Source: Fibrobacter sp. (GTDB lineage: Bacteria > Fibrobacterota > Fibrobacteria > Fibrobacterales > Fibrobacteraceae). Taken from it: a stretch of 32,000 nucleotides of DNA. Both the position numbers and the translations under genes were made by a program. The notes below the pieces were generated by a model, which was not told the DNA's origin, did not search any database, and worked only from the letters and a program-made list of their open reading frames with translations. The stretch lies in the NCBI GenBank assembly GCA_045599625.1, contig JAZRWJ010000002.1, forward strand, positions 3,222 through 35,221, in the 5' to 3' direction. Of the stretch, positions 1,488-17,831 are shown piece after piece. How positions within the stretch are numbered: position 1 is the first letter of the stretch; the number at the start of each line of letters is the position of its first letter.

Positions 1488-1901
1488 TCAATCCTTTTTT
1501 TCTCGGAACAAGGTCAGCTTTCGCGCTCCGAAGTTCCACATCAAAACAACTGCCGCGGCAATCATCTTGGAAATCATTTCCTGCCCATGGAGCAAGTCCA
1601 CCAGGAAAACCATCAACAGTTCGTTAAGCGCAACACCTGCAAAACCAATCACGGCGAATACGGCAAACTCTGCAGACTTGCGCATTTCAAGTCTGCGTTT
1701 ACAATCCGAGAAAACCCACCTAACGCTAAGGGCATAGTTGAGTACCAGACCAGCAACCAACCCGATGAAATTCGCAAGCAGATAATGCCAGCCTAGAACA
1801 TACAGGCAAAAAGCGAATAGCCCAAAATCCACTAGAAAGGCAAATCCACCCACTAGTAAGTAACGTGCTAGTTGCGCTAGCACTCCTTTTATTTCAACCA
1901 T
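1488..1901 (-). CDS. GtrA-family membrane protein
   Basis: 137 aa, about four hydrophobic helices. [16 protein letters not shown] ... [10 protein letters not shown] is typical of GtrA-like proteins. Abuts the oxidoreductase gene. Confidence 0.85.
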
Positions 1902-1919
1902 AATGTTATCGTTTAGTTT

Positions 1920-3149: not shown

Positions 3150-3182
3150 TATTAGCAAACCTTAAAGGTCATTCCAAAGGCA

Positions 3183-3923
3183 TTATATTTTATCACAAAC
3201 CAATCCATGTCTTGTATCACCAACACACTGTTCACCAGGCATTATATTTTCTTCAGGAAGTTCCGCGACAAATGCTTCACATTCACTTTTCAAGCTATCC
3301 GCTATGGTTTCTAACTTAGTGTTAGCAGAGACCTTTGTCACGCAAGCTGCTTCAAAGGATCCTGCGGAACAACCCCTATTGTACATTTTATAAAGACCAC
3401 CATTTTCATTGCACGTTTTAACAAAGACAATACTATCTGCTTCACAGCGTTCAACCGCATTTTCAGAATACAGCTTGAAATGGCTTTCAAACTTATAAAG
3501 GGAATCCTCATTTTCACGAAGATAAACTAAAGCATCATCGCTATCTTCCCCAGGGTTATCTCCTTTTACAGACTTGGAATAATATATTCCATTTTCTTCT
3601 TTATAAACATTCACCCAACAGCTACCTGTTGACCTCAATTCACTAAAAGCTGATTCCGGTTCGGTCTTGAAAGAATTTACAGCGGCAGGAGAAGCAGAAA
3701 GAGATCCTCCTTCCGTCGGGACCGCATCATCCAAATTCACGCCATCAGAAACAACTTGGCCATTTCCAGATTCACCAAGCATTGTTTTCATAAAACAAAC
3801 GTCTGCATCAGACAATTTTTCAGAAGAATCTTTTGCTTCCGCAGATGCCTCGACTGAATTATTGTCGGAACAAGCCTCAAAAGCGAAAATCATAGCGACT
3901 ATGAGTAGAAATTTCTTTTTCAT
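3183..3923 (-). CDS. Cys-rich secreted lipoprotein, unknown function (paralog-like of 1920-3149)
   Basis: MKKKFLLIVAMIFAFEACSDNN gives a signal peptide plus lipobox. RGCSAGSFEAACVT resembles DGCKNGNFDAACRM in the neighbouring gene. Confidence 0.7.
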   Translation of the reverse strand: MKKKFLLIVAMIFAFEACSDNNSVEASAEAKDSSEKLSDADVCFMKTMLGESGNGQVVSDGVNLDDAVPTEGGSLSASPAAVNSFKTEPESAFSELRSTGSCWVNVYKEENGIYYSKSVKGDNPGEDSDDALVYLRENEDSLYKFESHFKLYSENAVERCEADSIVFVKTCNENGGLYKMYNRGCSAGSFEAACVTKVSANTKLETIADSLKSECEAFVAELPEENIMPGEQCVGDTRHGLVCDKI

Positions 3924-3955
3924 GTTATGACTCCTTTTTTAGAGCGTTTCTATTT

Positions 3956-4771
3956 TCAAACTTTTTCAGTTAAGGGAAACAGTTGTAAATTCAATCGATA
4001 AACACGATTTCCACCTTTCTTCGCTGTCGCTATGGAAATAATTCTTTTTCGACAGGCGTCCAACTCCTTTACAATTGCAGCGTAATCCTCTTCATCAATC
4101 CCGATGGTGACTCCGGAAAAATTTCGTTCTTCCACGGGATACTTATCTAACGCATCTTTGGCTGATCCAGCCATTTCTTTATGCATTGAACGAACTAGCA
4201 TGGGTAAGGCTGTCACAGATACCTGGAGAGATCTATTCTCTTGCTCATACACATCCTTCGCCAACTTCTTTAAAAATTTAGCCCTCGTCAAAAAGGCAAG
4301 TGCATCACGAACTTCTTCGGCAGAAAAAGAACCTCCACAAACCTTAGCCATATCGCTAGGTTTTGCCCCAGGCATCATGGGAGCCAACTCACGAAGCATC
4401 GGATATTTCCAAGATTGATAGAAAGAAATGGATTCACCTTCTAGAATGCGAACTTTTTGGGTCTCAGCGATTTCCATCATTTCTGCATAAGCAGAATTTC
4501 TAACATTTTCCTTCTTCGCTTGACCAAACCTAACAAGCCTACGAAAATATTCACGTTCAGTTCCTATAAGATCCATCGCCTCAGCAACGTGTTCAATTCC
4601 AGGCTCAGACAAGCCGCTCTTTCCATCACAAACGACCTTCAGATAGTTAGGCGATGTAAATCCACTATTTTTCGCGAATTCTCGCCATGAAAAAGCAGAA
4701 GTTCGCTTTTTCCACAAGTAGTAATCGTTCATATAGGAACGATAATCATCATATTCAAATATAGATTTCAT
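3956..4771 (-). CDS. TIGR02147-family protein (Fibrobacter paralogous family, unknown function)
   Basis: 271 aa. The N-terminus DDYRSYMNDYYLWKKRTSAFSWREFAKNSGFTSPNYLKVVCDGKSGLS matches my recollection of the TIGR02147 signature (YR.yL.dyy..rK.....S.R.FA...G..sp.yLk.v..GkR.Ls). Confidence 0.7.
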   Translation of the reverse strand: MKSIFEYDDYRSYMNDYYLWKKRTSAFSWREFAKNSGFTSPNYLKVVCDGKSGLSEPGIEHVAEAMDLIGTEREYFRRLVRFGQAKKENVRNSAYAEMMEIAETQKVRILEGESISFYQSWKYPMLRELAPMMPGAKPSDMAKVCGGSFSAEEVRDALAFLTRAKFLKKLAKDVYEQENRSLQVSVTALPMLVRSMHKEMAGSAKDALDKYPVEERNFSGVTIGIDEEDYAAIVKELDACRKRIISIATAKKGGNRVYRLNLQLFPLTEKV

Positions 4772-4869
4772 TTCAAAACAAATATACTCATGAACTTCTC
4801 TCTAAAGAATCAATTTTCCATACAAAATCTGAGCTTTCAAACGCGTTTGTATCATAAAATGTATAACAA

Positions 4870-4896
4870 AAACCGTGGTGAAAATCACCACGGTTT
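4870..4896 (-). terminator. Perfect 12-bp hairpin; terminator-like on the minus strand, with no assigned upstream gene
   Basis: AAACCGTGGTGA / TCACCACGGTTT with a 3-nt loop. Read on the minus strand it is followed by TTTTTGTT. It sits in the divergent intergenic region 4772-5100. Confidence 0.3.
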
Positions 4897-5024
4897 CCTA
4901 GCAAAAAAAATAGTTTCAAGTCTAGCTACGGGGTAAGAAAAATCCCTTAATGCAACTCATATTACGGAGGCAAACCTGAATATGATTCTTCTTACGGGGT
5001 ATAGATAACTTCGTAACAAAACTC

Positions 5025-5088
5025 TTGACTATACAAATAAGACTATCTATATTAGACTATACAAAATAGATAGTCTATTCTGTATAAT
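5025..5088 (+). promoter_or_regulatory. Sigma70-like promoter with an overlapping inverted-repeat operator, upstream of the AAA ATPase gene
   Basis: TTGACT (5025-5030), a 17-nt spacer, then TATATT (5048-5053). A perfect 11-bp inverted repeat AGACTATCTAT (5040-5050) / ATAGATAGTCT (5066-5076) overlaps the -10. GACTATACAAA occurs as a direct repeat at 5027-5037 and 5055-5065. A second TATAAT lies at 5083-5088. Confidence 0.4.
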
Positions 5089-5100
5089 TGAAGAGATTTT

Positions 5101-6228
5101 ATGGATAATCCATTCATACTCAAACCTTATGGCGGAAAGGATCTGTTCTGTGATCGAGAACAGGAATGCAGAACCATTGTTAACTATCTGCTCAATGGAT
5201 CCAACGTCACATTGATTTCGCCCCGCAGGTACGGAAAAACGGGACTAATCTATAGAGTTTTGGATGAATTGAATCAATCCCATCCCGGGATTATTTCTTT
5301 TTACGTGGACATTTATTCATGCAATAACCTTGACGATTTTATCGCCAAGCTATCTACCGCCATCATAAATTCTGCGCCAAAGGAAAGTTTCACCCAAAAA
5401 TTCATCAATGCCATCAAGGGTGTTCGTCCCATAATGAGATTTGACGCACTAAGTGGGGCGCCTGAAATTTCCATCACCTATCTGGCTCAGACTGAAAAGC
5501 AGGAAACCCTCAAGTCCATATTTGATTATCTCAGTTCACTCAAAAAGCCAATTGTTATCGCAATAGACGAATTTCAGCAAATCCGCAATTTTCCTGAGCC
5601 AAATATGGAAGCCATACTCCGGAGTCATATCCAAATGCTTCCGAACATTAGATTCATATTCTCAGGAAGCCAGAAGCATATCATGAGTGAAATGTTCACT
5701 TACGAAAAATCGCCTTTTTATGAAAGCACGCGATGCATCCATCTTGAAAAAATTGACCGCGGTATTTACGGAGAGTTCATTAGAAAACTTTTTGGAAAAG
5801 ACAAACGCATTCTTACAGACGAAGCACTTGAGTTTATCCTAGACTGGACCCGTGTTCATACCCACTACACCCAAGTGCTTTGCAATGTTCTGTTCAGTAT
5901 GAACTTTCGCAAAATAGGTATTGAAGAAGTTTACGAAGGTGCCTTAAAAATTTTACGAGAAGGCGCGGCCGACTTTATGGATAGACGAAGCCTAGTCACG
6001 CCCGCCCAATGGAATTTTTTGACCGCAGTCGCAAAGGAAGAATCCGTATCCAAGCCCACAGCTGCAGAATTTCTCGTAAAGTATAATATCGGTCAACCCG
6101 CAAATTCACGACGAATTTTGCAAGCTCTTTTGGACAAGGAACTTCTTCTAGAAACCACTACTCTTGACGGCAAACACTACAGCGTTTACAACGTCTTTTT
6201 GAGTCGATGGCTTGAACGACTTAATTAA
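5101..6228 (+). CDS. AAA-type ATP-binding protein (archaeal-ATPase / ATPase_2-like with a DUF234-like C-terminus)
   Basis: 375 aa. Walker A is ISPRRYGKTGL and Walker B is VIAIDEFQQI. The overall layout is typical of the PF01637-like 'ATP-binding protein' family. Confidence 0.75.
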   Translation: MDNPFILKPYGGKDLFCDREQECRTIVNYLLNGSNVTLISPRRYGKTGLIYRVLDELNQSHPGIISFYVDIYSCNNLDDFIAKLSTAIINSAPKESFTQKFINAIKGVRPIMRFDALSGAPEISITYLAQTEKQETLKSIFDYLSSLKKPIVIAIDEFQQIRNFPEPNMEAILRSHIQMLPNIRFIFSGSQKHIMSEMFTYEKSPFYESTRCIHLEKIDRGIYGEFIRKLFGKDKRILTDEALEFILDWTRVHTHYTQVLCNVLFSMNFRKIGIEEVYEGALKILREGAADFMDRRSLVTPAQWNFLTAVAKEESVSKPTAAEFLVKYNIGQPANSRRILQALLDKELLLETTTLDGKHYSVYNVFLSRWLERLN

Positions 6229-6231
6229 AAA

Positions 6232-7764
6232 TCACTTCTGTCCGCGGGCCGCCAGTGCAGCGGCGCTGGCGGCAGCCTGCTCACGCATGCGCTTGCGGGC
6301 GCGGGAGCCGGGGCGGTTACGGCCGATGGTTCGGCGGTTTAGATTATCGCCGTTCTGCGGAGCTGCAGAACGCTGCGGGCGGTTTTCTCCGCGGCCTTCT
6401 CCCAGCTGCATATTTTCACGAGCCATTTCCGCAGCACGAGCATTGCGCTTGTCGGCCTGGTGCTTGCGCCAGTCAAACTTTGCTTTCGGAGTACCGCCAG
6501 ATTCCCCGTCAAGCGGGGAATGACCTGCGTTTTGACGATTGTCACGGCCACCTTTCTGGCCACGGGGCATTCTACCGCGAGCATTTCTCAGTTCACTTTC
6601 GGGAGTTTCCTTCTGGGGAGGCGGCAGCTTTTCAAACACGCTTGCGTCACCTTCGGGAATTTTCACGCGGGTGAGCTTCTCGATTCCGCGCAAGTCAGAT
6701 TCTTCGTCCGGTGCGCAGAAGGAAATGGCAACGCCTTCCTTCCCTGCGCGGGCGGTACGTCCAATGCGATGCACAAAGGTTTCGTGTTCGTTGGGCAGGT
6801 CATAATTGAATACGTGAGTCACGGCATCCACGTCAATACCGCGGGCGGCAATATCTGTTGCCACCAGCACGCGAATCTTTTCATCCTTGAAATTACCAAG
6901 CGCTTCTTGCCTACGATTCTGGCTCTTGTTGCCGTGAATGGCGGCGCACTTAATCTGAGCCTTTTCCAAGACGCGCACAATTTTATCTGCGCCGTGTTTT
7001 GTGCGAGTAAACACCAAAACTTTTTTCATTTCTTCGTGAGAAGAAAGCAGCTCCTTCAGCAAGGCGCCCTTACGGCGTTTGTCGATGCGGTACAGTTCCT
7101 GGCGAATGCGTTCAATAGGAGTGCTCTGGGGAGCCACTTCCACGCGGACAGGGTTGGCGCTCAAAATAGTCGAGGCCAGGTCAGAAATTTCCTTAGGCAT
7201 GGTGGCGCTGAAGAACAGGTTCTGGCGCTTGCCCGGAAGCATGCCCACCACCTTGCGGATATCATGAATGAAGCCCATATCAAGCATACGGTCCGCTTCA
7301 TCCAGCACAAAGAATTCCACGTTCTTCAAGGTCACGGCATGCTGACCAATCAAATCCAGCAAACGGCCCGGAGTAGCCACCAGAACATCAACGCCACGAA
7401 CCAGAACATTCTTCTGCTTCACATCGCTGACGCCGCCAAAAATGCAAGCGGTAGAAATGGCGGTGTACTGGGCGTACATCTTGAAGCATTCTTCCACCTG
7501 GATCGCCAATTCGCGGGTGGGCAGCAAAATCAGGGCACGGCAAGTCTTTGGCTGACGGAACTTTCCGGATTCCAACAGACGCTGCAAAATGGGGAGCGCA
7601 AAGGCAGCGGTCTTACCCGTTCCCGTCTGGGCGATGCCCAGCAGGTCCTTTCCTTCCAGCAAGCTGGGGATGGACTGTTCCTGAATGGGAGTGGGGTTTT
7701 CGTAGCCTACAGTGCGAACGGCACGCTGGAGCGGATTTGCCAAAGGAAGTTCTTCAAATTTCAT
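6232..7764 (-). CDS. rhlE: DEAD-box ATP-dependent RNA helicase (RhlE-like) with an Arg/Gly-rich C-terminal tail
   Basis: Motifs seen: Q motif ...YENPTPIQEQSIP, AQTGTGKT, PTRELA, VLDEADRMLDMGF, SAT, HRIGRTARAG. The track ORF starts at 7845, but MKFEELPLANPLQRAV at 7764 matches the canonical DEAD-box N-terminus. Confidence 0.85.
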   Translation of the reverse strand: MKFEELPLANPLQRAVRTVGYENPTPIQEQSIPSLLEGKDLLGIAQTGTGKTAAFALPILQRLLESGKFRQPKTCRALILLPTRELAIQVEECFKMYAQYTAISTACIFGGVSDVKQKNVLVRGVDVLVATPGRLLDLIGQHAVTLKNVEFFVLDEADRMLDMGFIHDIRKVVGMLPGKRQNLFFSATMPKEISDLASTILSANPVRVEVAPQSTPIERIRQELYRIDKRRKGALLKELLSSHEEMKKVLVFTRTKHGADKIVRVLEKAQIKCAAIHGNKSQNRRQEALGNFKDEKIRVLVATDIAARGIDVDAVTHVFNYDLPNEHETFVHRIGRTARAGKEGVAISFCAPDEESDLRGIEKLTRVKIPEGDASVFEKLPPPQKETPESELRNARGRMPRGQKGGRDNRQNAGHSPLDGESGGTPKAKFDWRKHQADKRNARAAEMARENMQLGEGRGENRPQRSAAPQNGDNLNRRTIGRNRPGSRARKRMREQAAASAAALAARGQK

Positions 7765-7809
7765 ATTGAGGGCAAAAATAGAAAAGTGAACACCCCATTT
7801 AAAGGGTAT

Positions 7810-7840
7810 AAAAAAAGAGATCCCGGCGCAGGGCCGGGAT
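7810..7840 (-). terminator. Rho-independent terminator of glk
   Basis: ATCCCGGC-gcagg-GCCGGGAT (7820-7840), a perfect 8-bp GC-rich stem. On the minus strand it is followed by ctcTTTTTTT. It lies 28 nt after the glk stop. Confidence 0.6.
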
Positions 7841-7868
7841 GACAATTACGCAGTTCGCGTCTTTGCGA

Positions 7869-8936
7869 CTACTTTTGCAGATTCAGGCTTGCGTTAGCAG
7901 CGCCGTACAAACTAATGCTGTAATCCTTGATCACGTACACCGGAATCTTGTTCAGGAGCGGGCGGATGTTGGGGTTATAGTTCTTTTCGAAGTACTGCAT
8001 GAACAAGTTATCACGTTCCAGCCAGCGCAGGTCCTTCTGCACGGTACCGCCAGCCAGGTAGAAACCACCCAACGGGAGGAACAGAGTAGAAGCGTCAGAA
8101 GCGAAGCGGGCCAGCATCTTCACGAAGAGACGCATCATTTCTGCAGCAACAGGATCGTTGTCGCTTGCGCGGGAAATGTACTTCGGGCGTTCATTAGGTT
8201 CCGTTTCTTCAATCTTCTGGAAGTATTCGTTGTTCGGAACGCCGCGGGTTTCCTTCCACCATTCGTACATGTTGCGAAGGCCCATGCCAGAAACGAGAGG
8301 TTCTACGCCAGGAACAACGCCAAGCTTCTGCTGCATGTAATCGTGGAATTCCTGAGAGTCCTTGTCGAAAGGTGCGAAAGTAGAGTGGCCACCTTCAGAG
8401 GAAGCGGGAATGTACTTCTGACCGTCGAAAGCCAGGAAGCCAACGCCCATGCCTGTACCCGGGCCAATCACTGCCTTAGTAGCAGCCTGGGGAGCGGGAG
8501 TGGTACCATCGGTGTGAACCAGCTTGTGAATCTGTTCCGGATCGTCCACATCCAGAGTGGGAATGCCATAGCTGATGGCCATGAAGTCGTTGATCACGAG
8601 AGTGGGAATGCCGGTAGCGGCAGAGAGAGCATCGCCATCCACAGACCAGGGCAGGTTGGTCATGACGCACTTGTTGTTAGCCACAGGACCTGCAGCACTG
8701 ATGCAAATATGAGACGGCTTCAAATCAGCACGGGATTCAACAGCAATCTTCAAGGTTTCGCGAATAGGAGCATCCAGACCATCAATGTCCTTGGAGGGGC
8801 AGACAGTTTCCAGGATCAGAGTGAACTTGCCATCCTTGTAGCCTACGATACCCAGGTTGGTGTTGGTACCGCCGATATCGCCAGCCAAAACAAGGCGGTC
8901 AAACTTTGCGTCGGGATTTTTCCATTTGATTTCCAT
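7869..8936 (-). CDS. glk: Glucokinase
   Basis: 355 aa. LAGDIGGTNTNLGIV is the ATP-binding motif of Glk-family (PF02685-type) glucokinases. Length and downstream motifs are consistent with that family. Confidence 0.8.
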   Translation of the reverse strand: MEIKWKNPDAKFDRLVLAGDIGGTNTNLGIVGYKDGKFTLILETVCPSKDIDGLDAPIRETLKIAVESRADLKPSHICISAAGPVANNKCVMTNLPWSVDGDALSAATGIPTLVINDFMAISYGIPTLDVDDPEQIHKLVHTDGTTPAPQAATKAVIGPGTGMGVGFLAFDGQKYIPASSEGGHSTFAPFDKDSQEFHDYMQQKLGVVPGVEPLVSGMGLRNMYEWWKETRGVPNNEYFQKIEETEPNERPKYISRASDNDPVAAEMMRLFVKMLARFASDASTLFLPLGGFYLAGGTVQKDLRWLERDNLFMQYFEKNYNPNIRPLLNKIPVYVIKDYSISLYGAANASLNLQK

Positions 8937-9030
8937 AATAAAACTCCAGTTTTTAGACCGTCAAAATATACTAAAGGACCTACGCGGGGGTAGTTCTCAC
9001 AGGTCAAACGACCCCATATAAGTACTTTTT

Positions 9031-9059
9031 TTGACAAATACAAAGCACGGACCGATATA
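9031..9059 (+). promoter_or_regulatory. Sigma70-like promoter of the SLOG-PTH2 operon
   Basis: TTGACA (9031-9036), a 17-nt spacer, then GATATA (9054-9059). The same GATATA(C/T)CAAT -10 region occurs at the 12510 and 19957 promoters. Confidence 0.4.
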
Positions 9060-9098
9060 TCAATTGGGAAAATAAGTAAGAAATGAAGAGGTTCGTGT

Positions 9099-9617
9099 AT
9101 GAACAAAACATACGCAGGAATTGGCAATCGGGAAATTTCGGGAGCGAAGGATGGTGACCACGGGCTGCCTGTGGCGAAAGTTTTGACGCATCTCGGCATC
9201 GAACTAGAGAAATTGGGCTACACGCTGTACAGTGGCGGAGCCAAAGGTTGCGACAGCGCCTTTGCAAGTGGCGTAAGCGCAGAACACTGCCGGATTTTTA
9301 CGGCAGATGATGCTACGGATGAAACCCGCGCCATGGCACGGGCCCACAAACAGCCTTGTGAAATTTTGCTAGGTCGTAAGCTGGACTTGTACGCTCGCGA
9401 AGCCAATCAGATTCTTGGTCCTGACTTGAAAAGCCCTGTAGATTTTGTGCTATGCTACACCCGTGACGGTTGCGAAAGCCATGAAACCCGTTCCGAGAAA
9501 ACAGGGGGCACAGGCTACGCCATCGAACTCGCCAGCCGCCGTGGCATTCCCGTCATCAATATCAAGAACGAAGGCTGGGAAGAAAAGTTGAAAACAATCA
9601 TGGAGAATAATGTATGA
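9099..9617 (+). CDS. Stand-alone DprA/Smf-like (SLOG-superfamily) Rossmann-domain protein
   Basis: 172 aa. YAGIGNRE...LGYTLYSGGAKGCDSAFASG...NQILG...DFVLCYT.DG...TGGTGYAIELA..GIPVINI follows the DprA/Smf Rossmann-domain pattern (GIGSR..., SGGA.G.D.A, TGGT). There are no SAM or winged-helix extensions. Confidence 0.6.
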   Translation: MNKTYAGIGNREISGAKDGDHGLPVAKVLTHLGIELEKLGYTLYSGGAKGCDSAFASGVSAEHCRIFTADDATDETRAMARAHKQPCEILLGRKLDLYAREANQILGPDLKSPVDFVLCYTRDGCESHETRSEKTGGTGYAIELASRRGIPVINIKNEGWEEKLKTIMENNV

Positions 9618-10012
9618 GACGTTTATTCATTATTCGCAAGGATTTAAACCTGTCCCCGGGAAAACTTGCCGCTATGGTGGGGCATTGCGCCGAAGGTTAC
9701 TGGATGCAGTTACTCCTGCGAAACGAGCCAATTCCAGATGACATCCGCGAAGAGTATGTAAACGGAATCTTCAGAAAAATCATTTGCGGCGCAAAGGACT
9801 TGTCACACTTAATGAAAGTCGAAGCCACCGCAAAGGAACTTGGCTTTGTCGAAAACGAAGACTACGGTTTTATCGATGACTGGTGCTTTACCGAAATTAA
9901 GCCAGAATTCACAGACTCCCAGGGAGTCGGCAGATGCCGCGTAGGCATTTGGTTCAAGCCGCTTCCAGACGAAACCAGCAAACTTCTAAGCCGCAAGTAT
10001 AACCTGTACTAA
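9614..10012 (+). CDS. PTH2-family (archaeal/eukaryotic-type) peptidyl-tRNA hydrolase-like protein
   Basis: 132 aa. FIIRKDLNLSPGKLAAMVGHCA resembles the PTH2 core ([22 protein letters not shown] in human PTRH2). The C-terminus ...SRKYNLY resembles ...GHLKLY. The start overlaps the previous stop as ATGA (9614-9617). Confidence 0.7.
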   Translation: MRRLFIIRKDLNLSPGKLAAMVGHCAEGYWMQLLLRNEPIPDDIREEYVNGIFRKIICGAKDLSHLMKVEATAKELGFVENEDYGFIDDWCFTEIKPEFTDSQGVGRCRVGIWFKPLPDETSKLLSRKYNLY

Positions 10013-10029
10013 AATATGGAAATTTTAAA

Positions 10030-10755
10030 ATGACTACCGAAAATACAAAAACTATTTTCAAAGTTACCATAGTAAGATTATCGTCTTACGATGACGCAGC
10101 CGATTACGAGTTCAACGAAGAAGGTGAGCTCTCTTGTTGCGCTTGGAACAGTGAAACCGCTTTCTTTGATTCGCTGGACGAATCGGAATCTTTTATTCGT
10201 CAAGTTGCCGCACAAGTGCCCTCGGAAGATGATAACCCCATTCATCATTTTGAAGTAACAGAACTTCCGTTTGGCACATGCTTTCCTAGTTTTGAATGGC
10301 TTTCAAAACGTTCCTACCTGCCAAACGGAGAATTTTGGGAAAGCAATCCACTATCCACGCTGCTAACCGAAGGAGATCTTGATGTTTTTGAAGGTCGAGA
10401 CAGCGAAAATTGCCACTTCCGAGAAGGCGACATCGTTGAAGTTTATCGTGGTGATGTATATCTAGGCATCGTCAGTTTTCTTCCGCCATCAAAAAAATGG
10501 ATTGCAGAAACCCTTGAAAGAGTCAAGCAAGAACTTCCGTATAGCGCAAAGCGTAAAGGTGGGTACCCTCATTCGGATTATTCAGATGACTGCTACATGG
10601 TAGTCTACGCTTACAAGGATAAAGATGGCTCCATCCATCCCGACCATTCCCACCCCGATGTTTGCGATGTGTTCAAACCCTGTAAAAATGCCTCTGCGGA
10701 AATTGAACAGACACTCCGAAATTGCCTTGAAAGAAGTTCAAAAGGTGAATTGTAA
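10030..10755 (+). CDS. Hypothetical acidic protein (third gene of the SLOG-PTH2 operon)
   Basis: 241-aa ORF starting 17 nt after the PTH2 stop on the same strand. I recognise no family. It contains a beta-barrel-like motif, FREGDIVEVYRGDVYLGIV. Confidence 0.55.
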   Translation: MTTENTKTIFKVTIVRLSSYDDAADYEFNEEGELSCCAWNSETAFFDSLDESESFIRQVAAQVPSEDDNPIHHFEVTELPFGTCFPSFEWLSKRSYLPNGEFWESNPLSTLLTEGDLDVFEGRDSENCHFREGDIVEVYRGDVYLGIVSFLPPSKKWIAETLERVKQELPYSAKRKGGYPHSDYSDDCYMVVYAYKDKDGSIHPDHSHPDVCDVFKPCKNASAEIEQTLRNCLERSSKGEL

Positions 10756-10883
10756 ATCACTATAGGAAACAATATGACGAAGTTTTTTGACAGTTTTACA
10801 AATCCCAATTCCGCAACATACGGCGAACTGTACAGCAGCCACGCCTCAGGTGAAATCCTCCCCCGCCATATTGGCTTAAAAAC

Positions 10884-12218
10884 TTAAAACAAGCTCGTCA
10901 TATACACAGGCTTTAGCTCCAAGCCCTTATCATTGTCCACATCCTGCTGCGAGAACAAGATTCTACGACTAATATGGCGGCTGTACTTTTGGAAGAACGC
11001 ATCTATGGATTCATGATTCTTTGCAGCAGAAGACTTTACTTCTATCGCAATTAATTTTGCACGATCCTGAATTAAGAAGTCAACTTCATAACTGTGAGTG
11101 CTGTTATCTTTTTGCCAAGTGTGATAATACAAGTCCTTGCCCATTGACTTTATGGCCTGGGCCACTGCATTTTCATAGAGATAGCCAAGATTGGCAGGAA
11201 GCTTGTCTGCAAGAAGTTTGTTATAGATATCCTTATTCGTTTCTGTCCCGTCATTAAAAAGCATTGTAGTGAACAAGCCCGTGTCAGCAAGATAAAGTTT
11301 GTATGTATCCAAGGATTTCGTCTGTGCAAGACTTACACTTGGGTCATTCACATTGTGGCATATCATCACTGTTTTCGAATCAATCAAATCCGAAAGCAAT
11401 TCTTCGTCCTTCGTAGTACGCTTCTTGCCCACAGCCTGCGAAAGCATAAAATGTTTGCGCTTCATCGCCAGCTGACTCGGCACAGCGTTAAATATCATAG
11501 AAACCCTTCCGCTCGCATCAATTTTACGGAAGTCATCCATATACAGTTCCAAAATTTTCTTTTTGATAAAATCAATTTGCTGAAAATTTTTCTTTTGGAC
11601 AAACGCCTCTACAGCCTGCGGCATTCCCCCTACAGCCATATACAATCGAAAATCCGCCATCAACTTTCGATTTACGGCATCGCCTAACTTCTTTTTGGAA
11701 GCAGCCATTGACTTTAGGTTCTCGTAAATTCCTGCCCCATCTTCTTTAGTCGCCCATAGAAACTCTTCGTAGTCCATGGGGTACACATCTATCTTGATTT
11801 CTTCAGAGGGAATAACAATATTCTTTACATTCTTCTTGATACTGATCAGAGAACCCGTTTCGATGTAATCGTAACGACCATCCTTCACCAGGTGCTTAAT
11901 GGATTGTCTTGCTAACGGAGCAAGCTGAACCTCGTCGAATACAATTACGGACTCTCGACGATAAAGAGTCTTGCCCATGAAGCTCTGCAACCTTGCGAAA
12001 AACAAATCCAAGTCGCTGACATCTTCAAACAACGCCAGGACCTCTTTACGGACTTTGGAAAAGTCAATCAGGATATACGAACGATACTCGTTTTTGGCAA
12101 ATTCCTCGACAATCGTGCTCTTGCCTACACGACGGGCTCCCTGTAGGAGAGCCGCATAACTCCCCGCCCATTCCTTTTTCCATTCCAAAAGCCTAGAATA
12201 CGCCTTTCTCTTGAACAT
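10884..12218 (-). CDS. AAA ATPase, AAA_14 + DUF4143 family ('ATP-binding protein')
   Basis: 444 aa. Walker A is GARRVGKST and Walker B is VIVFDEVQ. Length and C-terminal region are typical of the DUF4143 family. Confidence 0.8.
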   Translation of the reverse strand: MFKRKAYSRLLEWKKEWAGSYAALLQGARRVGKSTIVEEFAKNEYRSYILIDFSKVRKEVLALFEDVSDLDLFFARLQSFMGKTLYRRESVIVFDEVQLAPLARQSIKHLVKDGRYDYIETGSLISIKKNVKNIVIPSEEIKIDVYPMDYEEFLWATKEDGAGIYENLKSMAASKKKLGDAVNRKLMADFRLYMAVGGMPQAVEAFVQKKNFQQIDFIKKKILELYMDDFRKIDASGRVSMIFNAVPSQLAMKRKHFMLSQAVGKKRTTKDEELLSDLIDSKTVMICHNVNDPSVSLAQTKSLDTYKLYLADTGLFTTMLFNDGTETNKDIYNKLLADKLPANLGYLYENAVAQAIKSMGKDLYYHTWQKDNSTHSYEVDFLIQDRAKLIAIEVKSSAAKNHESIDAFFQKYSRHISRRILFSQQDVDNDKGLELKPVYMTSLF

Positions 12219-12233
12219 AAAACCCCTTACAAA

Positions 12234-12317
12234 TCCATTTTTTCAACATAAAAATACACAAAATAGTCCATTTTTTCAACATAATTTAGGCAAAAACAAT
12301 CCATTTTTTCAGCATAA
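12234..12317. repeat. Three direct repeats TCCATTTTTTCA(A/G)CATAA, phased at exactly 33 bp
   Basis: Copies at 12234-12251, 12267-12284 and 12300-12317, with variable 15-bp spacers. They begin 16 bp upstream of the ATPase start codon (12218). Confidence 0.85.
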
Positions 12318-12330
12318 TCAAGCTTTCGTT

Positions 12331-12373
12331 GTGTGAAACATTTTCACGCAAAACAAGCATATTTGTTTCACAC
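12331..12373. promoter_or_regulatory. Inverted repeat, possible operator
   Basis: GTGTGAAACA (12331-12340) and TGTTTCACAC (12364-12373) form a perfect 10-bp inverted repeat 23 bp apart. An extra TTTCAC half-site lies at 12342-12347. Confidence 0.4.
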
Positions 12374-12460
12374 AAACAAGAAAAATCGACGCAAAACAGC
12401 CTAGTAAAGCTCAAATAATTAAGATCTTGACACTCCGGTATCAAGATTTTCTTAACCAAA

Positions 12461-12509
12461 ATTTTGACAGATTCCTTTTTTCACCTCGATATACAATACG
12501 AGGTAAAAC
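12461..12509 (+). promoter_or_regulatory. Promoter + 5' leader module (copy A) of the four-gene operon
   Basis: TTGACA (12464-12469), then GATATACAAT, then GAGGTAAAAC immediately before the ATG. By hand alignment, 44 of 52 positions are identical to 19909-19959. Confidence 0.5.
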
Positions 12510-12821
12510 ATGACTTCTCATGCAAATTTTAAAGAGGGCGAAATTTATCAAGTCAAACAGGGCGAAAAAACATACGACGCCGTGTTCTTGAAGACTTATA
12601 AAAACGACAAGTATTCCTTTATCTTTGGCGACAATCTTTTAGATTCAGACTATCCATTGACCGTAAATGGCAAGCCAATGTTGATTGCCAGCGCAAGGGA
12701 ATGTGTAAATCCTAGAACCATTGTTAAATGGACTAGAGTTACAGGAAGAACTGAAACTTATTACGAAAGGATTGTCTTCAAGTTCCCCGAAGAATCCAAG
12801 AAAAAGGTTAAGAAACAATGA
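12510..12821 (+). CDS. Hypothetical protein (103 aa)
   Basis: First ORF behind the promoter module. Contains the motif FKEGEIYQVKQGEKTYDAVF and has a Lys-rich tail. No family recognised. Confidence 0.55.
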   Translation: MTSHANFKEGEIYQVKQGEKTYDAVFLKTYKNDKYSFIFGDNLLDSDYPLTVNGKPMLIASARECVNPRTIVKWTRVTGRTETYYERIVFKFPEESKKKVKKQ

Positions 12822-13003
12822 AAGACGATGCAACGGCAAAGAAACAAGAAACGGAAAACGAAGACTCCGAAATCACTAAAGACGATTTGATCGATAGCGA
12901 TGATGAAATCACCTATACCGTTGAAGATGCAAGAAAATGGACAGAAAAGGCTTTAAGGGATTACTATGAAAAACATTATGGAGAACAAAGTTCCAAACGA
13001 TGA
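12818..13003 (+). CDS. Hypothetical highly acidic small protein (61 aa)
   Basis: Its start overlaps the previous stop as ATGA (12818-12821). Rich in D/E. Confidence 0.45.
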   Translation: MKDDATAKKQETENEDSEITKDDLIDSDDEITYTVEDARKWTEKALRDYYEKHYGEQSSKR

Positions 13004-13199
13004 TTCTGAAGAAAAGAATCCGTATCAACAGGTTTTAGATTTGCCAGAAGATTTGCCAATACCAATTGAAGAAGGTATGGAAATGGTTAAAGAGGCTTTA
13101 TTATGGCTGTCCCGCCATCCAGAAGAAGCTGAAAAAATTAGAAAGAGCAAGGCAAATCAAGCGAAGGCAAAAACGTCGGCACAAATACAGGAAAAATAA
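12966..13199 (+). CDS. Hypothetical acidic small protein (77 aa)
   Basis: Overlaps the previous ORF by 38 nt in the +1 frame. The start could also be the ATG at 12978. Confidence 0.4.
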   Translation: MKNIMENKVPNDDSEEKNPYQQVLDLPEDLPIPIEEGMEMVKEALLWLSRHPEEAEKIRKSKANQAKAKTSAQIQEK

Positions 13200-13229
13200 A
13201 ATGTCATCGCGAACGCCAAGGAGCCTCCC

Positions 13230-14114
13230 ATGACAGAACTATCAAAGCAGGCCAAAGAATTATGGGAACAGATGCTGAAAAAAAGCAAGGAAGAGGACGC
13301 CGGGATGTGGAAGCATCTCTCTGATGGCGAGATTACGATTCTTGCGCCTGAAGATCAAGATTTCACTCGGTTGCTTGACTATCTGTTGAAAGAGGAACTG
13401 AACGGAGTAACATTGCTAAATGACATTGTCAGGGAAATGTGTATCCAAGAAGTTTTTCACTACATACTGGAAGATGACTGCGATTTTCGAAAGCATTACT
13501 TGAAAAAAAGAGGCAAGGCGTTAGAGAGCGCTTACGATGTTTTTTTACGGTATTGCAAGCAGTCCATTGAAAACCTGACCTATGAAACAGATATCATGGA
13601 GGAGCCTTTCAAGCTCAAGTGCATCGCCGACGACGAAATGCGAAAGGTTCTGGAGAGCACCTTAACCGCAGCAACAGGGTACAACTATTTCGACAGGCTA
13701 GATGGAAAAGATGTGATCATCGCAGATAACTCCCTTTCGGAAAATGGAATATATTCGATGACAAAAGCGATAAGAAACGGTCATAACCCGCGTTCCATTT
13801 CAGTTCTCGCGTTTGATCCGAAAGAAACTGAATTGTCGATTCCGTCTGAATACCCGGAAAGGATTGAAAGAATTTTCCGCCTTATCAGCAAACTGTACGG
13901 CATTTACGACGAATGTGGCGTTGACACCATGACGCCTTACATGAAGCAAAAGCTCACAGAATGCAGAGCGCTCATCGAGCCTTATAACGATGACAGAGCA
14001 AATAGTTGCAAGCAAAGGTGCGATTGGCTGTTGAAAGAAATTCCGACGCTTGAAAAAATGAATCAAGGAAATTCCTGTAAAAAAAAGAACAGCCATGCAA
14101 TCTGGTGCGGGTGA
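13230..14114 (+). CDS. Hypothetical protein (294 aa)
   Basis: AAGGAG lies 6 nt upstream of the ATG. Long clean ORF. No family recognised. Confidence 0.6.
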   Translation: MTELSKQAKELWEQMLKKSKEEDAGMWKHLSDGEITILAPEDQDFTRLLDYLLKEELNGVTLLNDIVREMCIQEVFHYILEDDCDFRKHYLKKRGKALESAYDVFLRYCKQSIENLTYETDIMEEPFKLKCIADDEMRKVLESTLTAATGYNYFDRLDGKDVIIADNSLSENGIYSMTKAIRNGHNPRSISVLAFDPKETELSIPSEYPERIERIFRLISKLYGIYDECGVDTMTPYMKQKLTECRALIEPYNDDRANSCKQRCDWLLKEIPTLEKMNQGNSCKKKNSHAIWCG

Positions 14115-14126
14115 ACACATCCCTTA

Positions 14127-14155
14127 TTGACCAGGCCCCCAGGTTTATTTATATT
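14127..14155 (+). promoter_or_regulatory. Sigma70-like promoter inside the 13230-gene / R-M spacer
   Basis: TTGACC (14127-14132), exactly 17 nt, then TATATT (14150-14155). Confidence 0.4.
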
Positions 14156-14161
14156 CTTGAC

Positions 14162-14378
14162 GACATAGTTCAGTTTTGCGAAAGCGAGACTGAACGCAGG
14201 TTTTATTGAGTTTTCGACTCTTATTCGCTGACGCAGAAATTCACCACTTCAAAAGTCAATCCACGAATAAGGCGAGTGCTCACGTCCCGTTTGGGGCGTG
14301 GGCCGTTTGCGCCTATGGATTGATGGGTTGTGGTGACCCTCTGCGTCAATAGGTGCATTCGGTTCCACGCCTTTTTTT
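14162..14378 (+). ncRNA. Candidate structured non-coding RNA or regulatory leader upstream of the R-M gene
   Basis: Hand-folded helices: (a) a 12-bp hairpin at 14168-14195 capped by a GAAA tetraloop; (b) ACTC..TTATTCG (14217-14227) with CGAATAAG..GAGT (14264-14278); (c) CACGTCCC (14281-14288) with GGGGCGTG (14293-14300); (d) TGACGCAGA (14229-14237) with TCTGCGTCA (14340-14348); (e) GGCGTGG (14295-14301) with CCACGCC (14365-14371), followed by T7 (14372-14378). No convincing ORF. The boundaries are guesses. Confidence 0.3.
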
Positions 14379-14435
14379 ATTTGGTGTTCGACAAACCGAA
14401 AGCTCCCTAAAAGTGTTGAAAACGACACTTTTTCA

Positions 14436-17207
14436 ATGGAGACCACTATGGCCAAAACAAGAAGTTTTGAAGACGACGTAGTTGACTGGTGTAAGGATCA
14501 TCTAGACCATTTCTTCAACAGAACCGAGAGCATCAATCCGGAAATCGATAACGCTCTAAAAATCGCCCCCAGTAAACAAGGAGGTAATGGGCCAAATTTT
14601 CCAGACCTCAAGTGTCTGATTACACTTGGCTGTAGAAATATTCCGGTCATGATAGAGTGTAAGGGAACTAAGGGTGACTTCATTAAGCAAAATAAAAATG
14701 GAGACATAATTCTATCTGATAAAAGCGGTAATCCTGATTATACGACTATCGCCAAATATGCGGTAAACGGAGCTATCCATTACGCAAACGCGATTCTAAA
14801 CCATACCGAAAGCTACAAAGAGGTTATCGCCATTGGAGCGAACGGTTGGGAAGTCAATGGTCAACTAAAAACAGAACTAGGCGTTTATCTCCTATCCAAG
14901 GAAAATTTATTCATTCCCAAGAAAGTTGATGATTATTCCGATCTTTCTTTTTTAAATGAAAAAAACATCAAAGGATTTGTTGAAAAAATTGATGAGCTCA
15001 AGCTTACGCCCGAAGAAATTGAATCCAAAAAATTTGCATTGGAAGACGAAATTGAAATTCGGCTTAAACGATTGAATCAAACCATGCACGACGACCTTCA
15101 AATTACAGTAGAGTCTCGAGTCAAGTTGATTGCCGGTATGATTATGGCCGGACTTGGAGTAGAAAACATTTCCGAAGGTCTCAAAATCGAAGACCTGAAA
15201 GGCGAAAAGGGCAAGAAGTCAAATGATGGACAAAAAATTATAGACAAGATTGAAGATTTTTTAAAGTCGAAGAATCTGCCAGAAGAAAAACAGGAAGTCA
15301 TATTAAATGAGTTGGCCAATGTTTTTAAAAATACGAGCCTATATACGCCACAAAACGGAGAGAGCAAACTAAAGACAGTCTTTACCGTAGTCAAATCTGA
15401 AATTTTGCCTTTCCTATCTTCGGACTTGCACAACATTGATTTTACTGGAAGACTATTCAACGTTCTAAATGACTGGGTTGCAGTTCCTGACGGAGCGGAA
15501 AACGATGTAGTCCTGACTCCACGTGCTGTTACAGAATTAATGACAAAGCTGACCCAGGTTAACAAGGACAGCTATGTTTGGGATTATGCTACAGGTTCTG
15601 CAGGATTTCTAATTTCCGCCATGCACCACATGATTGATGATGCTAAAAAGAAAATAAAGAATCCTGACGAACAACGAAAAAAAATTGCGACAATCAAGGC
15701 AGAACAACTCCTCGGCATTGAAAAACTTCCCGAAATCTACATTCTAGCCGTACTGAACATGATTCTAATGGGCGACGGCTCTTCAAACATTATTCACGCA
15801 GACTCACTAAAAGATTTCAGCGGGAAATATGAGCAGGGACAAAAAAAAGGACAGGAATTTCCTGCTAATGTTTTTCTGCTGAATCCACCATATTCTGCAG
15901 CAGGCAAAGGATTTGTCTTTGTTGAAAAAGCTCTTAGCAAAATGAAGTCAGGAAAGGCAGCTGTACTTATTAAGGAAAACGCAGGAAGTAACAAAGGTGA
16001 CGGCTACCCAGCTGAAATTTTAAAGCATAGCACCTTGCTTGCTTCCATTCATATGAATACAGATTTGTTCATCGGAAAATCAAACGTTCAAACAGCCATT
16101 TATGTATTTGATGTTGGTATCCCCCACGATATAGGAAAATTGGTAAAATTCATCGACTTTTCAAACGATGGTTACGCACGACAAAACCGTAAAACATCAA
16201 GCCAAAAGAACAACCTGAAAAATGTCGACCACGCCAAGGAAAGATATGCCGAAATCGTTGACCTTGTTGTTCGCGGCAAGGGAAAAGATGACAAAAACCT
16301 CAATTATTATAAAGACTGTTATGTTGAAGACTACATAACCCTTGAGGGAAACGATTGGACCTACAGTCAACACAAATTGGTAGAATCAAAGCCAAATGAA
16401 AATGAAATTCAAGCTGTTATAAAGGATTTCTATTCATGGAAAATCGAAAATTTCATTAGAACAGGATCTAATCAAGGTATTAACGAAAGCAATCTCCTAC
16501 AGGAATTATCTGAGCAAGAAATAAAATGTATGGAAAATTATGCAAATAATAAAGTTTATTTAAAAGAAGTGAGACTTGGAGATTTTTTCGACATTCATCC
16601 TACAAAGTGCTATAGGATGACGAATGACGAATTATTAAAAAACAAAGGAACTGTGCCTTTTGTGGCAAATTCCTCTGGAGGAAATGGAATTGGCGGCTGG
16701 GTAAATTTAGAAGCGACTGAAGCAGGGAACATAATCACATTTAGCGACACAACAACATCTGAAGCTATTTTTTATCAGCCATATGATTTTATTGGATATC
16801 CACACGTTCAAGGACTATATAAAAAAAAGAACATTTGGGACGAAAACAGTCTTATGTTTCTTGTGGCAACATTTCGAAAGTGCGCATCAGGACGATTTGA
16901 TTACACAAATAAATTTAATCGAGAAATCGCCATGGAAATGAAAGTTTCATTACCAATCAAAAGTTCTGTATGCAAAGAGGGGGGCTTGTCAGAAGAATCC
17001 AAAATATCGGAGGAAAATATTGACTTCGAATTCTTAAAACATCTAATCAAAGCCCACAAAAAAATAGCTATCAAGCCCTTAAAAAAGTGGTTTTCCTCAC
17101 AAGACGACGATAAATCTTATAATGTGAAAACAATATCATTTGGAGGATTTCAATTTAACGTTCCTGTTGATATTGCAGCAGACACTTCATCAAAGTTAAA
17201 AAAATAG
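14436..17207 (+). CDS. Single-polypeptide Type IIG (IIC/IIB-like) restriction-modification enzyme: PD-(D/E)xK nuclease + HsdM-like N6-adenine methyltransferase + HsdS-like target-recognition domain
   Basis: 923 aa. The N-terminus FPDLKCLITLGCRNIPVMIECKG fits PD...ExK. The methyltransferase has LTPRAVTELM, motif I DYATGSAGFL, LAVLNMILMG and motif IV NPPY. The C-terminus VRLGDFFDIHPTK...GTVPFVANSSGGNGIGGWV is typical of an HsdS target-recognition domain. The start could also be the ATG at 14448. Confidence 0.8.
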   Translation: METTMAKTRSFEDDVVDWCKDHLDHFFNRTESINPEIDNALKIAPSKQGGNGPNFPDLKCLITLGCRNIPVMIECKGTKGDFIKQNKNGDIILSDKSGNPDYTTIAKYAVNGAIHYANAILNHTESYKEVIAIGANGWEVNGQLKTELGVYLLSKENLFIPKKVDDYSDLSFLNEKNIKGFVEKIDELKLTPEEIESKKFALEDEIEIRLKRLNQTMHDDLQITVESRVKLIAGMIMAGLGVENISEGLKIEDLKGEKGKKSNDGQKIIDKIEDFLKSKNLPEEKQEVILNELANVFKNTSLYTPQNGESKLKTVFTVVKSEILPFLSSDLHNIDFTGRLFNVLNDWVAVPDGAENDVVLTPRAVTELMTKLTQVNKDSYVWDYATGSAGFLISAMHHMIDDAKKKIKNPDEQRKKIATIKAEQLLGIEKLPEIYILAVLNMILMGDGSSNIIHADSLKDFSGKYEQGQKKGQEFPANVFLLNPPYSAAGKGFVFVEKALSKMKSGKAAVLIKENAGSNKGDGYPAEILKHSTLLASIHMNTDLFIGKSNVQTAIYVFDVGIPHDIGKLVKFIDFSNDGYARQNRKTSSQKNNLKNVDHAKERYAEIVDLVVRGKGKDDKNLNYYKDCYVEDYITLEGNDWTYSQHKLVESKPNENEIQAVIKDFYSWKIENFIRTGSNQGINESNLLQELSEQEIKCMENYANNKVYLKEVRLGDFFDIHPTKCYRMTNDELLKNKGTVPFVANSSGGNGIGGWVNLEATEAGNIITFSDTTTSEAIFYQPYDFIGYPHVQGLYKKKNIWDENSLMFLVATFRKCASGRFDYTNKFNREIAMEMKVSLPIKSSVCKEGGLSEESKISEENIDFEFLKHLIKAHKKIAIKPLKKWFSSQDDDKSYNVKTISFGGFQFNVPVDIAADTSSKLKK

Positions 17208-17280: not shown

Positions 17281-17371
17281 GGCATCGGGGATTTTTTTTC
17301 AAAGCAGCACCTCCAGGTAAGTTTTCAGAATTTTGGAAACCCGAAGTTTCTTCGCATATTCAACAAGTTTA
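17281..17371. repeat. ~90-bp direct repeat, copy 1 (carries a detached 3' fragment of an AbiEi-like gene)
   Basis: About 90% identical by eye to 17742-17831. Its reverse complement reads ...KLVEYAKKLRVSKILKTYLEVLL*. Confidence 0.8.
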
Positions 17372-17475
17372 TATAAACTCTTGACAATCGCCAAATTTAT
17401 GCCCCCCCTTGATTTAACAAAATTCAATATATACATTATATATATGAATAGGAAAACCAGCAAAACAAGGAGAAA

Positions 17476-17741: not shown

Positions 17742-17831
17742 GGCATCGGGGAGTTTTTCATAGCAGCACCTCTAGGTAAGTTTTCAGAATTTTGGAAACC
17801 CTAAGTTTCTTCGCATATTCTGCAAGCTTAT
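17742..17831. repeat. ~90-bp direct repeat, copy 2 (3' end of the AbiEi pseudogene)
   Basis: Partner of 17281-17371. The two copies bracket the brnA-like gene. Confidence 0.8.

Follow-up and report, generated by a model that had tools for sequence, protein, structure and literature searches.

A DprA-like SLOG protein, a divergent PTH2-type hydrolase and an acidic orphan protein encoded in a mosaic gene array of Fibrobacter

Do three genes that are packed end to end in a bacterial chromosome form a system, or are they neighbors in a looser collection? The question is raised by a locus in a stretch of 32,000 nucleotides of Fibrobacter sp. DNA (contig JAZRWJ010000002.1, positions 3,222 to 35,221), which we call the window. 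Here genes encoding a SLOG domain protein, a PTH2-type peptidyl-tRNA hydrolase and an acidic protein that we term P241 follow one another on the same strand. The original prediction, made from the sequence of the window, regarded them as a three-gene module, with a nucleotide-sensing switch coupled to tRNA deacylation as one plausible function. From the analysis described below we consider it somewhat probable that the trio is a short local form of a mosaic array of accessory genes, all on one strand and drawn largely from the gene pool of large rumen phages, in which each protein acts alone. The three genes are:

9099..9617, + strand: SLOG gene, encoding a stand-alone DprA-like SLOG (Rossmann) domain protein of 172 amino acids
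9614..10012, + strand: PTH2 gene, encoding a divergent PTH2-type peptidyl-tRNA hydrolase (subfamily 1) of 132 amino acids
10030..10755, + strand: P241 gene, encoding an acidic protein of 241 amino acids from an unnamed family

The genes and their products

The tight packing that had been noted is real. Open reading frames (ORFs) of 172, 132 and 241 codons are present at these positions, and the stop codon of the SLOG gene overlaps the start codon of the PTH2 gene by 4 bp, in the sequence ATGA at 9614-9617, just as predicted. The PTH2 and P241 genes are separated by only 17 bp, and from the overlap and this short gap the trio would be expected to be co-transcribed. Orthologues of the three genes with 82-99% amino acid identity are present in four other contigs, and the same locus is found at 94-99% protein identity in one metagenome-assembled genome. 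The ratio of nonsynonymous to synonymous substitution rates (dN/dS) is 0.08-0.09 for the SLOG gene, 0.03-0.06 for the PTH2 gene and 0.12-0.33 for the P241 gene. With orthologues, and with dN/dS everywhere between 0.03 and 0.33, the trio must therefore comprise genes under purifying selection and not chance ORFs. All three are selected, authentic genes.

The SLOG protein matches the PHROG family phrog_768, described as a 'DprA-like DNA recombination-mediator', with an expectation value (E) of 5e-30; it has zero matches in Pfam and zero in NCBIfam. When a profile of its family was compared with the sequences of solved structures, chains of DprA scored best, at a marginal E of 0.04. An alignment of 43 family sequences contains the motifs YAGIGNR, SGGAKGxDxAF, DFVxCYT and GGTGxAI. 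The structure predicted by AlphaFold2 (AF2) is a single Rossmann domain, with a predicted local distance difference test score (pLDDT) of 96.3. The top eight structures found for this model by Foldseek are all H. pylori DprA (E 3e-4 to 2.5e-3, probability 1.0, template modeling (TM) score 0.53-0.55), the best being 5mll (E 3e-4, TM 0.54), and these are followed by a type II LOG protein, other DprA structures and the SLOG domain of ThsA. The LOG motif PGGxGTxxE with its catalytic Glu is absent; the family has GGTGxAIxxA in its place, and the position of the Glu is not conserved among the 43 members. Nor does the protein have the full architecture of DprA, comprising SAM, Rossmann and C-terminal domains, since its 172 amino acids form one domain.

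Because of the match to phrog_768, the proximity of the model to DprA and the lack of conservation of the LOG Glu, gene 1 is best described as encoding a DprA-like SLOG domain that stands alone, the remaining domains of DprA being absent. This upholds the domain assignment of the original prediction, and gives no support to the proposed nucleotide-sensing switch; DprA, the nearest relative, is a binder of single-stranded DNA, and the catalytic Glu of the LOG enzymes falls at an unconserved position. A LOG- or Thoeris-like role for the protein was rejected on the same two grounds, the unconserved Glu and the DprA fold.

The second protein matches the Pfam family PF01981 over residues 4-100 (E 2.5e-9, with 37.8 bits against a gathering cut-off of 23), as well as the solved Pth2 structures 1rlk (E 2.5e-7), 1rzw and 1q7s, and its assignment to the PTH2 family thus holds. 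However, it falls below the NCBIfam equivalog cut-offs, scoring 38.8 bits against 126 for NF003314 and 32.3 bits against 82 for TIGR00283. It is a divergent form rather than an orthodox Pth2, and belongs to a distinct, previously uncharacterized subfamily, here called subfamily 1. This is tightly conserved (MRRLFIIRKDL ... KKYQLY) apart from a variable insertion. A search for relatives returned 983 at E <= 0.001, and a look-up of the exact sequence of the window's protein gave no record.

K17, D89 and T93 are invariant in 33 family members. In alignments with 1rlk and 1rzw, K17 falls on the Lys of GK(I/L)AAQ and D89 on the Asp of the DxGxT(E/Q)(V/I) motif, while T93 aligns with the Thr that comes after this Asp. 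We take these two residues to correspond to the catalytic K18 and D86 of S. solfataricus Pth2, whose roles were reportedly described by Fromant and colleagues in 2005.

Subfamily 1 is found in both phage and bacterial settings. There were zero matches to it at E 1e-5 in 50,697 records of cultured phages; there are 30 loci in IMG/VR, on contigs of up to 424 kb, and others on metagenome contigs of up to 438 kb that carry genes for terminase, Thg1, PARG and a transporter of nicotinamide mononucleotide. The nearest relatives outside Fibrobacter are on phage-like contigs. The subfamily is also chromosomal in rumen Treponema, including the cultured species T. bryantii and T. porcinum; in the former the gene lies among those for DinB, DUF72 and TatD. 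The SLOG protein for its part matches 378 records of cultured phages (N4-like phages, O4, YerA41, PAU and others) and at least 364 stretches in IMG/VR. The cultured phages, the IMG/VR stretches and the large phage-like contigs together establish the phage affinity of both families, and the window's PTH2 and DprA-like SLOG proteins add members to phage families already known.

The most consistent neighbor of subfamily-1 PTH2 in the contigs of large phages is a protein of ~247 amino acids with a Shikimate_dh_N domain. The two are syntenic at 17 loci (L002-L008, L018, L019, L027-L029, L032, L034, L044, L046 and L050), the gene for the Shikimate_dh_N protein lying 0.7-2.3 kb downstream of that for PTH2. 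A Ro/TROVE protein is also encoded near PTH2 in L050.

The third protein is indeed acidic (isoelectric point 4.56) and without a recognized motif, as had been noted: no model in Pfam, PHROG, NCBIfam or PADLOC matched it. A word-indexed search found close relatives in only two protein clusters, and an exhaustive HMMER search identified 160 distant relatives. The AF2 model is confident (pLDDT 93.3, predicted TM score 0.90). Foldseek comparison of the model with PDB and BFVD gave nothing below E 0.02, the best matches being partial SH3/Agenet/KOW-like barrels at E 0.03 or worse, and a profile search of PDB sequences gave none. A Pfam scan of 83 family members found weak matches to SH3_2 in five. 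The residues R123, D134, E137, D183, D186, D187, Y189, H206 and H208 are each kept in 63-82 of the 83 members, giving a conserved pattern of R, D, E, DxxDDxY and HxH that suggests a catalytic or metal-binding site. In viral contigs a pattern-based scan located the family on a single IMG/VR contig, and a scan with the single protein found none.

Gene order in relatives and in phages

Comparison of the related contigs, which we designate by numbers preceded by L, shows that the order of the genes is not fixed. Two further features of the window are required to follow this:

10884..12218, - strand: PDC-S01 ATPase gene (AAA_14/DUF4143), a neighbor that is not part of the array, convergent with the P241 gene
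12478..12821, + strand: fam4, a 35-nt leader followed by an ORF of 103 amino acids (12510-12821)

In the window and in L001 the order is SLOG, PTH2, P241, and then the PDC-S01 gene on the opposite strand. In L009 six genes intervene between SLOG and PTH2 (a DSP-PTPase-like gene, two unknowns, SpoVG and two paralogues of P241), and one more (fam6) between PTH2 and P241, so that the whole spans 5.6 kb; a further partial P241 paralogue lies upstream, bringing the copies of P241, several of them in tandem, up to four. L010 has SLOG, PTH2, fam6, P241 and a gene of 106 amino acids, and the PDC-S01 gene, which is at the same spot in L001, is absent. Its PTH2 gene is broken by a frameshifting deletion of 211 bp (window 9709-9919), with SLOG and P241 intact. 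L011 has a DSP-like phosphatase gene and a SLOG gene (84% identity) inserted beside genes of tryptophan biosynthesis, without PTH2.

The 106-amino acid gene of L010 (1878-2198) directly follows the P241 orthologue and is the equivalent of fam4 (82% identity), from which in the window the P241 gene is separated by that of the PDC-S01 ATPase. Because it directly follows P241 in L010, fam4 is probably part of the same array.

More distant relatives have other combinations. L012-L015 carry SLOG (51% identity), a family termed fam2 and a gene of 204 amino acids, beside a McrBC or Macro-domain gene. L162-L163 have a P241-like gene (30%), fam2 and SLOG (53%), followed by PDC-S01 and a MmeI-type restriction-modification gene; with its SLOG array, PDC-S01 and restriction-modification gene, L162 resembles the setting in the window. 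In L244 a P241-like gene without SLOG lies beside genes for an AAA ATPase, a WYL regulator, DUF2779 and SbcCD-like proteins.

All three families occur together only in the window, L001/L048, L009 and, with PTH2 broken, L010, and they are adjacent only in the window and L001. The reading frames are intact in the window, L001 and L009. Between the window and L009 the synonymous divergence (dS) varies threefold over the three genes (1.04, 0.70 and 0.32), which fits a recombinant history. The three-gene module of the original prediction does not survive this comparison, given the split order in L009, the broken PTH2 in L010 and the SLOG without PTH2 in L011; a conserved unit outside close relatives is not supported. 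As the order varies between relatives, other families are shuffled in and there is no obligate linkage, the genes constitute a mosaic array.

Two other families recur beside SLOG. fam2 (167-211 amino acids) adjoins it in L009, L012 and L162, and a protein resembling DSP/PTP-type phosphatases (phrog_5614, with weak Pfam matches to DSPc and PTP-SAK) is encoded at L009 2966-3397 and L011 2930-3424, directly adjoining SLOG in both, but on opposite sides. Searches of solved-structure sequences with fam2, fam6 and the DSP-like protein gave nothing usable.

We also surveyed SLOG and PTH2 as neighbors more widely. At ~60 other loci of subfamily-1 PTH2 (30 viral and 30 genomic) there were none with SLOG or P241 within 10 kb, and subfamily-1 PTH2 was found near none of 80 viral SLOG loci. 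The hidden Markov model of subfamily 1, being built from the window's own subfamily, is too narrow to detect other types of PTH2, and a Pfam check was added. This confirmed PTH2-family genes near SLOG in L093, L101, L107, L138 and L155, leaving 75 of the 80 loci without any PTH2.

Two further groups of PTH2 lie near SLOG. Subfamily 2, with the motifs VLYILMRNDL ... DTCAYVF ... FSLHP, carries the annotation peptidyl-tRNA hydrolase in phages of Caulobacter, Sinorhizobium and roseobacters, and canonical PTH2 is found in phages of Mycobacterium, Xanthomonas and Stenotrophomonas. At 17 of 80 subfamily-2 loci in IMG/VR the SLOG gene is downstream on the same strand, 446-4369 bp away, and the 17 come from a single phage clade. 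L093 has SLOG, two small genes, canonical PTH2 (700 bp from SLOG) and ten tRNA genes. In the 320-kb genome of Stenotrophomonas phage RAS14 PTH2 and SLOG are 2.5 kb apart, and by coordinates the same is true of CM1. Thus SLOG lies within 4.4 kb of PTH2 in four SLOG clades and with three PTH2 subfamilies. Each of the four clades of linked SLOG proteins is nearest to unlinked ones, and the juxtaposition must therefore have arisen or persisted several times, with different types of PTH2. The survey of gene neighborhoods called for by the original prediction accordingly has a divided outcome: proximity recurs in several phage lineages, but most loci are unpaired.

The neighborhoods also contain tRNA genes, which lie within 10 kb of 11 of the 80 viral SLOG loci and of 8 of the 22 that are on contigs of at least 100 kb. 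In the Ruegeria roseophage RpAliso (L160, record 1-17000) an array of ~30 tRNA genes includes SLOG, PTH2, a CCA-adding enzyme and a ribonuclease, although this SLOG is of a different family, of DUF2493 type and annotated as DprA-like. By coordinates, the layout of RpAliso is also present in DSS3P8, vB_RpoS-V10, DSS3_MAL1 and MD18.

Might SLOG and PTH2 then be a functional pair that acts on the single-stranded 3′ end of tRNA, with P241 as an optional accessory? On this view the DprA-like domain would bind or present tRNA ends that are damaged or blocked, PTH2 would take off their acyl or peptidyl group, and the two would belong to a phage-type kit for tRNA repair or counter-defence. We consider this unlikely, though it has substance. 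A spacing of 0.45-4.4 kb from a PTH2 on the same strand is common to the Fibrobacter arrays, the 17 subfamily-2 loci, L093, RAS14 and CM1; the linked clades look independent; the tRNA context of the RpAliso array, of L093 with its ten tRNA genes and of 11 of the 80 SLOG loci lends it support; and SLOG adjoins a DSP-type phosphatase in L009 and L011. Yet the partner is missing at 75 of 80 SLOG loci, at all of the ~60 other subfamily-1 loci and at 63 of 80 subfamily-2 loci, and where both genes are present their spacing and order vary, with other genes intervening. In L010 PTH2 has become a pseudogene while SLOG and P241 are kept. Moreover, as the 17 subfamily-2 cases form one clade there are only three or four independent events, and these are raw counts, unadjusted by a null model for the clustering of accessory genes.

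A stronger version of the same idea is rather doubtful. The stand-alone DprA-like SLOG proteins of phages would here be partners of PTH2 in a kit for the surveillance and repair of tRNA 3′ ends, rather than mediators of DNA recombination; the kit would counter tRNA-directed immunity, and would have been domesticated by Fibrobacter along with P241. In this kit the single-stranded acceptor end would be bound by SLOG and freed of blocked acyl or peptidyl groups by PTH2, and P241 would be a new enzyme-like family.

The array in the Fibrobacter chromosome

The array sits between glucokinase and RecBCD in the Fibrobacter chromosome. The left side of the window encodes a DEAD-box helicase and glucokinase, the right side RecBCD, and between the glucokinase side and RecBCD there is a variable island of low G+C content, at ~9.0-23.9 kb. 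It contains the trio, the PDC-S01 ATPase, a type IIG restriction-modification gene, AbiEi/AbiEii, RtcB and a GNAT protein. The ATPase has the Pfam domains AAA_14 and DUF4143 and matches the PADLOC model PDC-S01 at E 4e-93; PADLOC models were also matched among the neighbors by the type IIG restriction-modification protein and AbiEi. PHROG matches in the scanned ORFs of the window were limited to SLOG, PTH2, RtcB and GNAT, and an Rfam scan of the window found zero families.

Expression of the trio had been assigned to a promoter:

9031..9059, + strand: proposed promoter, TTGACA at 9031-9036, a 17-nt spacer and GATATA at 9054-9059

The letters are there as described, but as a promoter they are less convincing. 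The second hexamer matches TATAAT at three of six positions and lacks its final T, and a consensus promoter scan of the region does not include this sequence among its matches. These number 13 against 9.4 +/- 3.4 expected, i.e., not above chance. Sequence upstream of 9081 is not common to the window and L009.

Two origins for the array were rejected: an intact prophage or integrative element, since there is no tRNA gene, no flanking direct repeat and, among the 23 window ORFs scanned, no Pfam integrase family, and an array of integron cassettes, since the overlaps or gaps of 10-70 bp between genes leave no room for attC sites. It is improbable that the trio is a nonfunctional remnant of an earlier prophage or mobile element, brought together only by deletions. 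Such an origin would account for the mosaic order and the deletion variants, for homologues that are phage genes, and for the lack of an intact mobile element around the trio. But purifying selection is strong on all three genes, over contigs with dS of up to 1.0, the frames are intact in the window, L001 and L009, and the PTH2 residues that align with the archaeal catalytic pair are kept.

Other elements of the island were seen in passing. The RtcB RNA ligase gene (window 19957-21123; phrog_1075, E 4e-116) lies between AbiEi/AbiEii and a GNAT protein of 299 amino acids, ~10 kb from the PTH2 gene. Its G+C content of 0.54 against 0.37-0.42 in the surrounding island gives it the look of a foreign RNA-repair gene amid families of tRNA-directed toxins.

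A 35-nt leader with the sequence TTTTCACCTCGATATACAATA[C/A]GAGGTAAAA[C/T]ATG is present at 12478-12512 and 19925-19959 of the window, and also at L001 9733-9754 and L010 1855-1876, with zero matches expected by chance. Its 3′ end is the start codon of two unrelated genes, the 103-amino acid ORF of fam4 and RtcB, and it contains a CCTCG-N10-CGAGG hairpin that overlaps a GAGG ribosome-binding site. The leader may be a shared element of translational or transcriptional control for genes of the island.

Repeats are found at two further places. Three copies of AATCCATTTTTTCAACATAA with a spacing of 33 bp (window 12227-12318) lie just upstream of the start codon of the PDC-S01 gene (12218, - strand), and resemble an operator or iteron. 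A direct repeat of 92 nt (88% identity), with copies 459 bp apart at 17295-17386 and 17754-17845, lies downstream of the type IIG restriction-modification gene; shorter associated repeats are at 17277 and 17738.

Function of the array and comparison with known systems

If the trio is a section of a mosaic accessory array, as we favor, the following picture may be drawn. The array would stand at the edge of a variable defence island, where the Fibrobacter host retains its genes under purifying selection. The PTH2-like enzyme is predicted from its sequence to hydrolyze the ester linkage in peptidyl-tRNA or in N-blocked aminoacyl-tRNA, and the tRNA so freed would be of use when translation or tRNA is under attack. 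By analogy with the Rossmann core of DprA, the SLOG protein would bind single-stranded nucleic acid, and would be neither a catalyst nor a sensor of small signals. P241 could work independently, perhaps as an enzyme or as a protein that binds metal, with an SH3-like barrel at its core. The nearness of SLOG and PTH2 would follow from their both belonging to an accessory or counter-defence class that clusters in phage genomes, and they need not be obligate partners.

Several points weigh against this picture. The array genes are possibly counter-defence genes, but that role is assigned from their context. The overlapping junction of SLOG and PTH2 is common to the window, L001 and L010, so that it is not a one-off accident, and the recurrence of SLOG with PTH2 elsewhere exceeds what a loose array needs; a direct functional link could be the reason. 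The P241 family is nearly absent from viral contigs, and the description 'phage-derived' therefore does not apply to that gene. Finally, the window has no tRNA gene and no flanking direct repeats to mark the island as mobile, and there are no integrase Pfam families among its 23 scanned ORFs.

A host defence or toxin-antitoxin system, with PTH2 as an effector that deacylates charged tRNA, SLOG as a sensor or antitoxin in the manner of ShosA, and P241 as a third component, is highly improbable, despite the tight, operon-like packing, the precedent of a DprA-like antitoxin in ShosTA, the position in a defence island beside PDC-S01, the type IIG restriction-modification gene and AbiE, and the defence-island-like settings of the P241 family in L162 and L244. 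Searches with PADLOC-DB 2.0 gave zero component models for all three proteins, that of ShosA included, which tells against such a system. The three proteins do not travel together, and the subfamily-1 PTH2 is a lone chromosomal gene among housekeeping-type genes in cultured Treponema. The wide occurrence of both SLOG and PTH2 in lytic phages points to a role that benefits the phage, and the loss of PTH2 alone in L010 fits a dispensable accessory gene better, though loss of a toxin would be tolerated. A ShosTA role for the SLOG protein was rejected, as there is no PADLOC match and its neighbor is PTH2 rather than a phosphoribosyltransferase (PRTase).

If the ordinary reading is true, the locus mainly illustrates how accessory genes of phages are acquired, reshuffled and retained at the margins of bacterial defence islands, and a false lead toward a 'new defence system' is removed. 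The original prediction had itself named as a refutation that the genes sit in an intact prophage as ordinary accessory genes. The evidence comes near to this, in that the SLOG and PTH2 genes are both ordinary accessory genes of large phages, a DprA-type SLOG protein and PTH2 having been listed among the genes of jumbo phages (Iyer et al., 2021; PMC7824862). Phage PTH2 has been proposed to clear peptidyl-tRNA in ribosome rescue after tRNA cleavage (PMC7824862).

Two leads remain, both modest. One is the recurrent SLOG-PTH2 neighborhood, involving three PTH2 subfamilies and four SLOG clades and sometimes placed within phage tRNA arrays. The literature that we searched describes no link between the two beyond their joint listing in jumbo phages, and PADLOC has no described system that pairs them, in agreement with the original prediction. 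The recurrence provides a testable clue to phrog_768, a family of hundreds of phages that is now labeled only by analogy with DprA. The other is the P241 family, which with ~160 members, an orphan predicted fold and a cluster of Asp, His, Arg and Glu residues is a defined target for structural and biochemical work.

How do the components compare with what is known? The Rossmann core of the SLOG protein is nearest to the DprA structures of H. pylori, R. palustris and S. pneumoniae, and shares the GGAxGxD and GGT motifs of DprA/Smf; it differs in being too short, at 172 amino acids, to include the N-terminal SAM and C-terminal domains, and in having no match to the Pfam model of DprA. Its likeness to the phage proteins of phrog_768, a family widespread in phages including jumbo phages, is strong. 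The PTH2 protein belongs to the same fold family (PF01981) as PTH2 of phages and keeps the Lys and Asp that align with the archaeal catalytic pair; its nearest relatives are on very large phage contigs together with Thg1, RNA-repair and nicotinamide adenine dinucleotide-salvage genes, in keeping with the published view of PTH2 as a gene by which phages rescue ribosomes or recycle tRNA (PMC7824862). The window's subfamily is nevertheless distinct, and is chromosomal in Fibrobacter and in cultured rumen Treponema.

Among conflict systems, ShosTA is the nearest described combination of a DprA-like protein with an enzyme, the antitoxin ShosA being paired with the PRTase toxin ShosT. Its defining features are not found here: ShosA has a SAM domain and ~320 amino acids against the 172 of the window's SLOG protein, the partner here is PTH2 and not a PRTase, and the pairing is not conserved.

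The anti-defence or accessory gene islands of phages and mobile elements provide the remaining comparison. None of the trio is a demonstrated anti-defence protein, the window is without a hallmark of a mobile element, and P241 is essentially absent from viral contigs. Common to both are small genes of mixed function that lie in runs on one strand, shuffle fast and are found beside or among defence genes, with the same families co-locating repeatedly but loosely.

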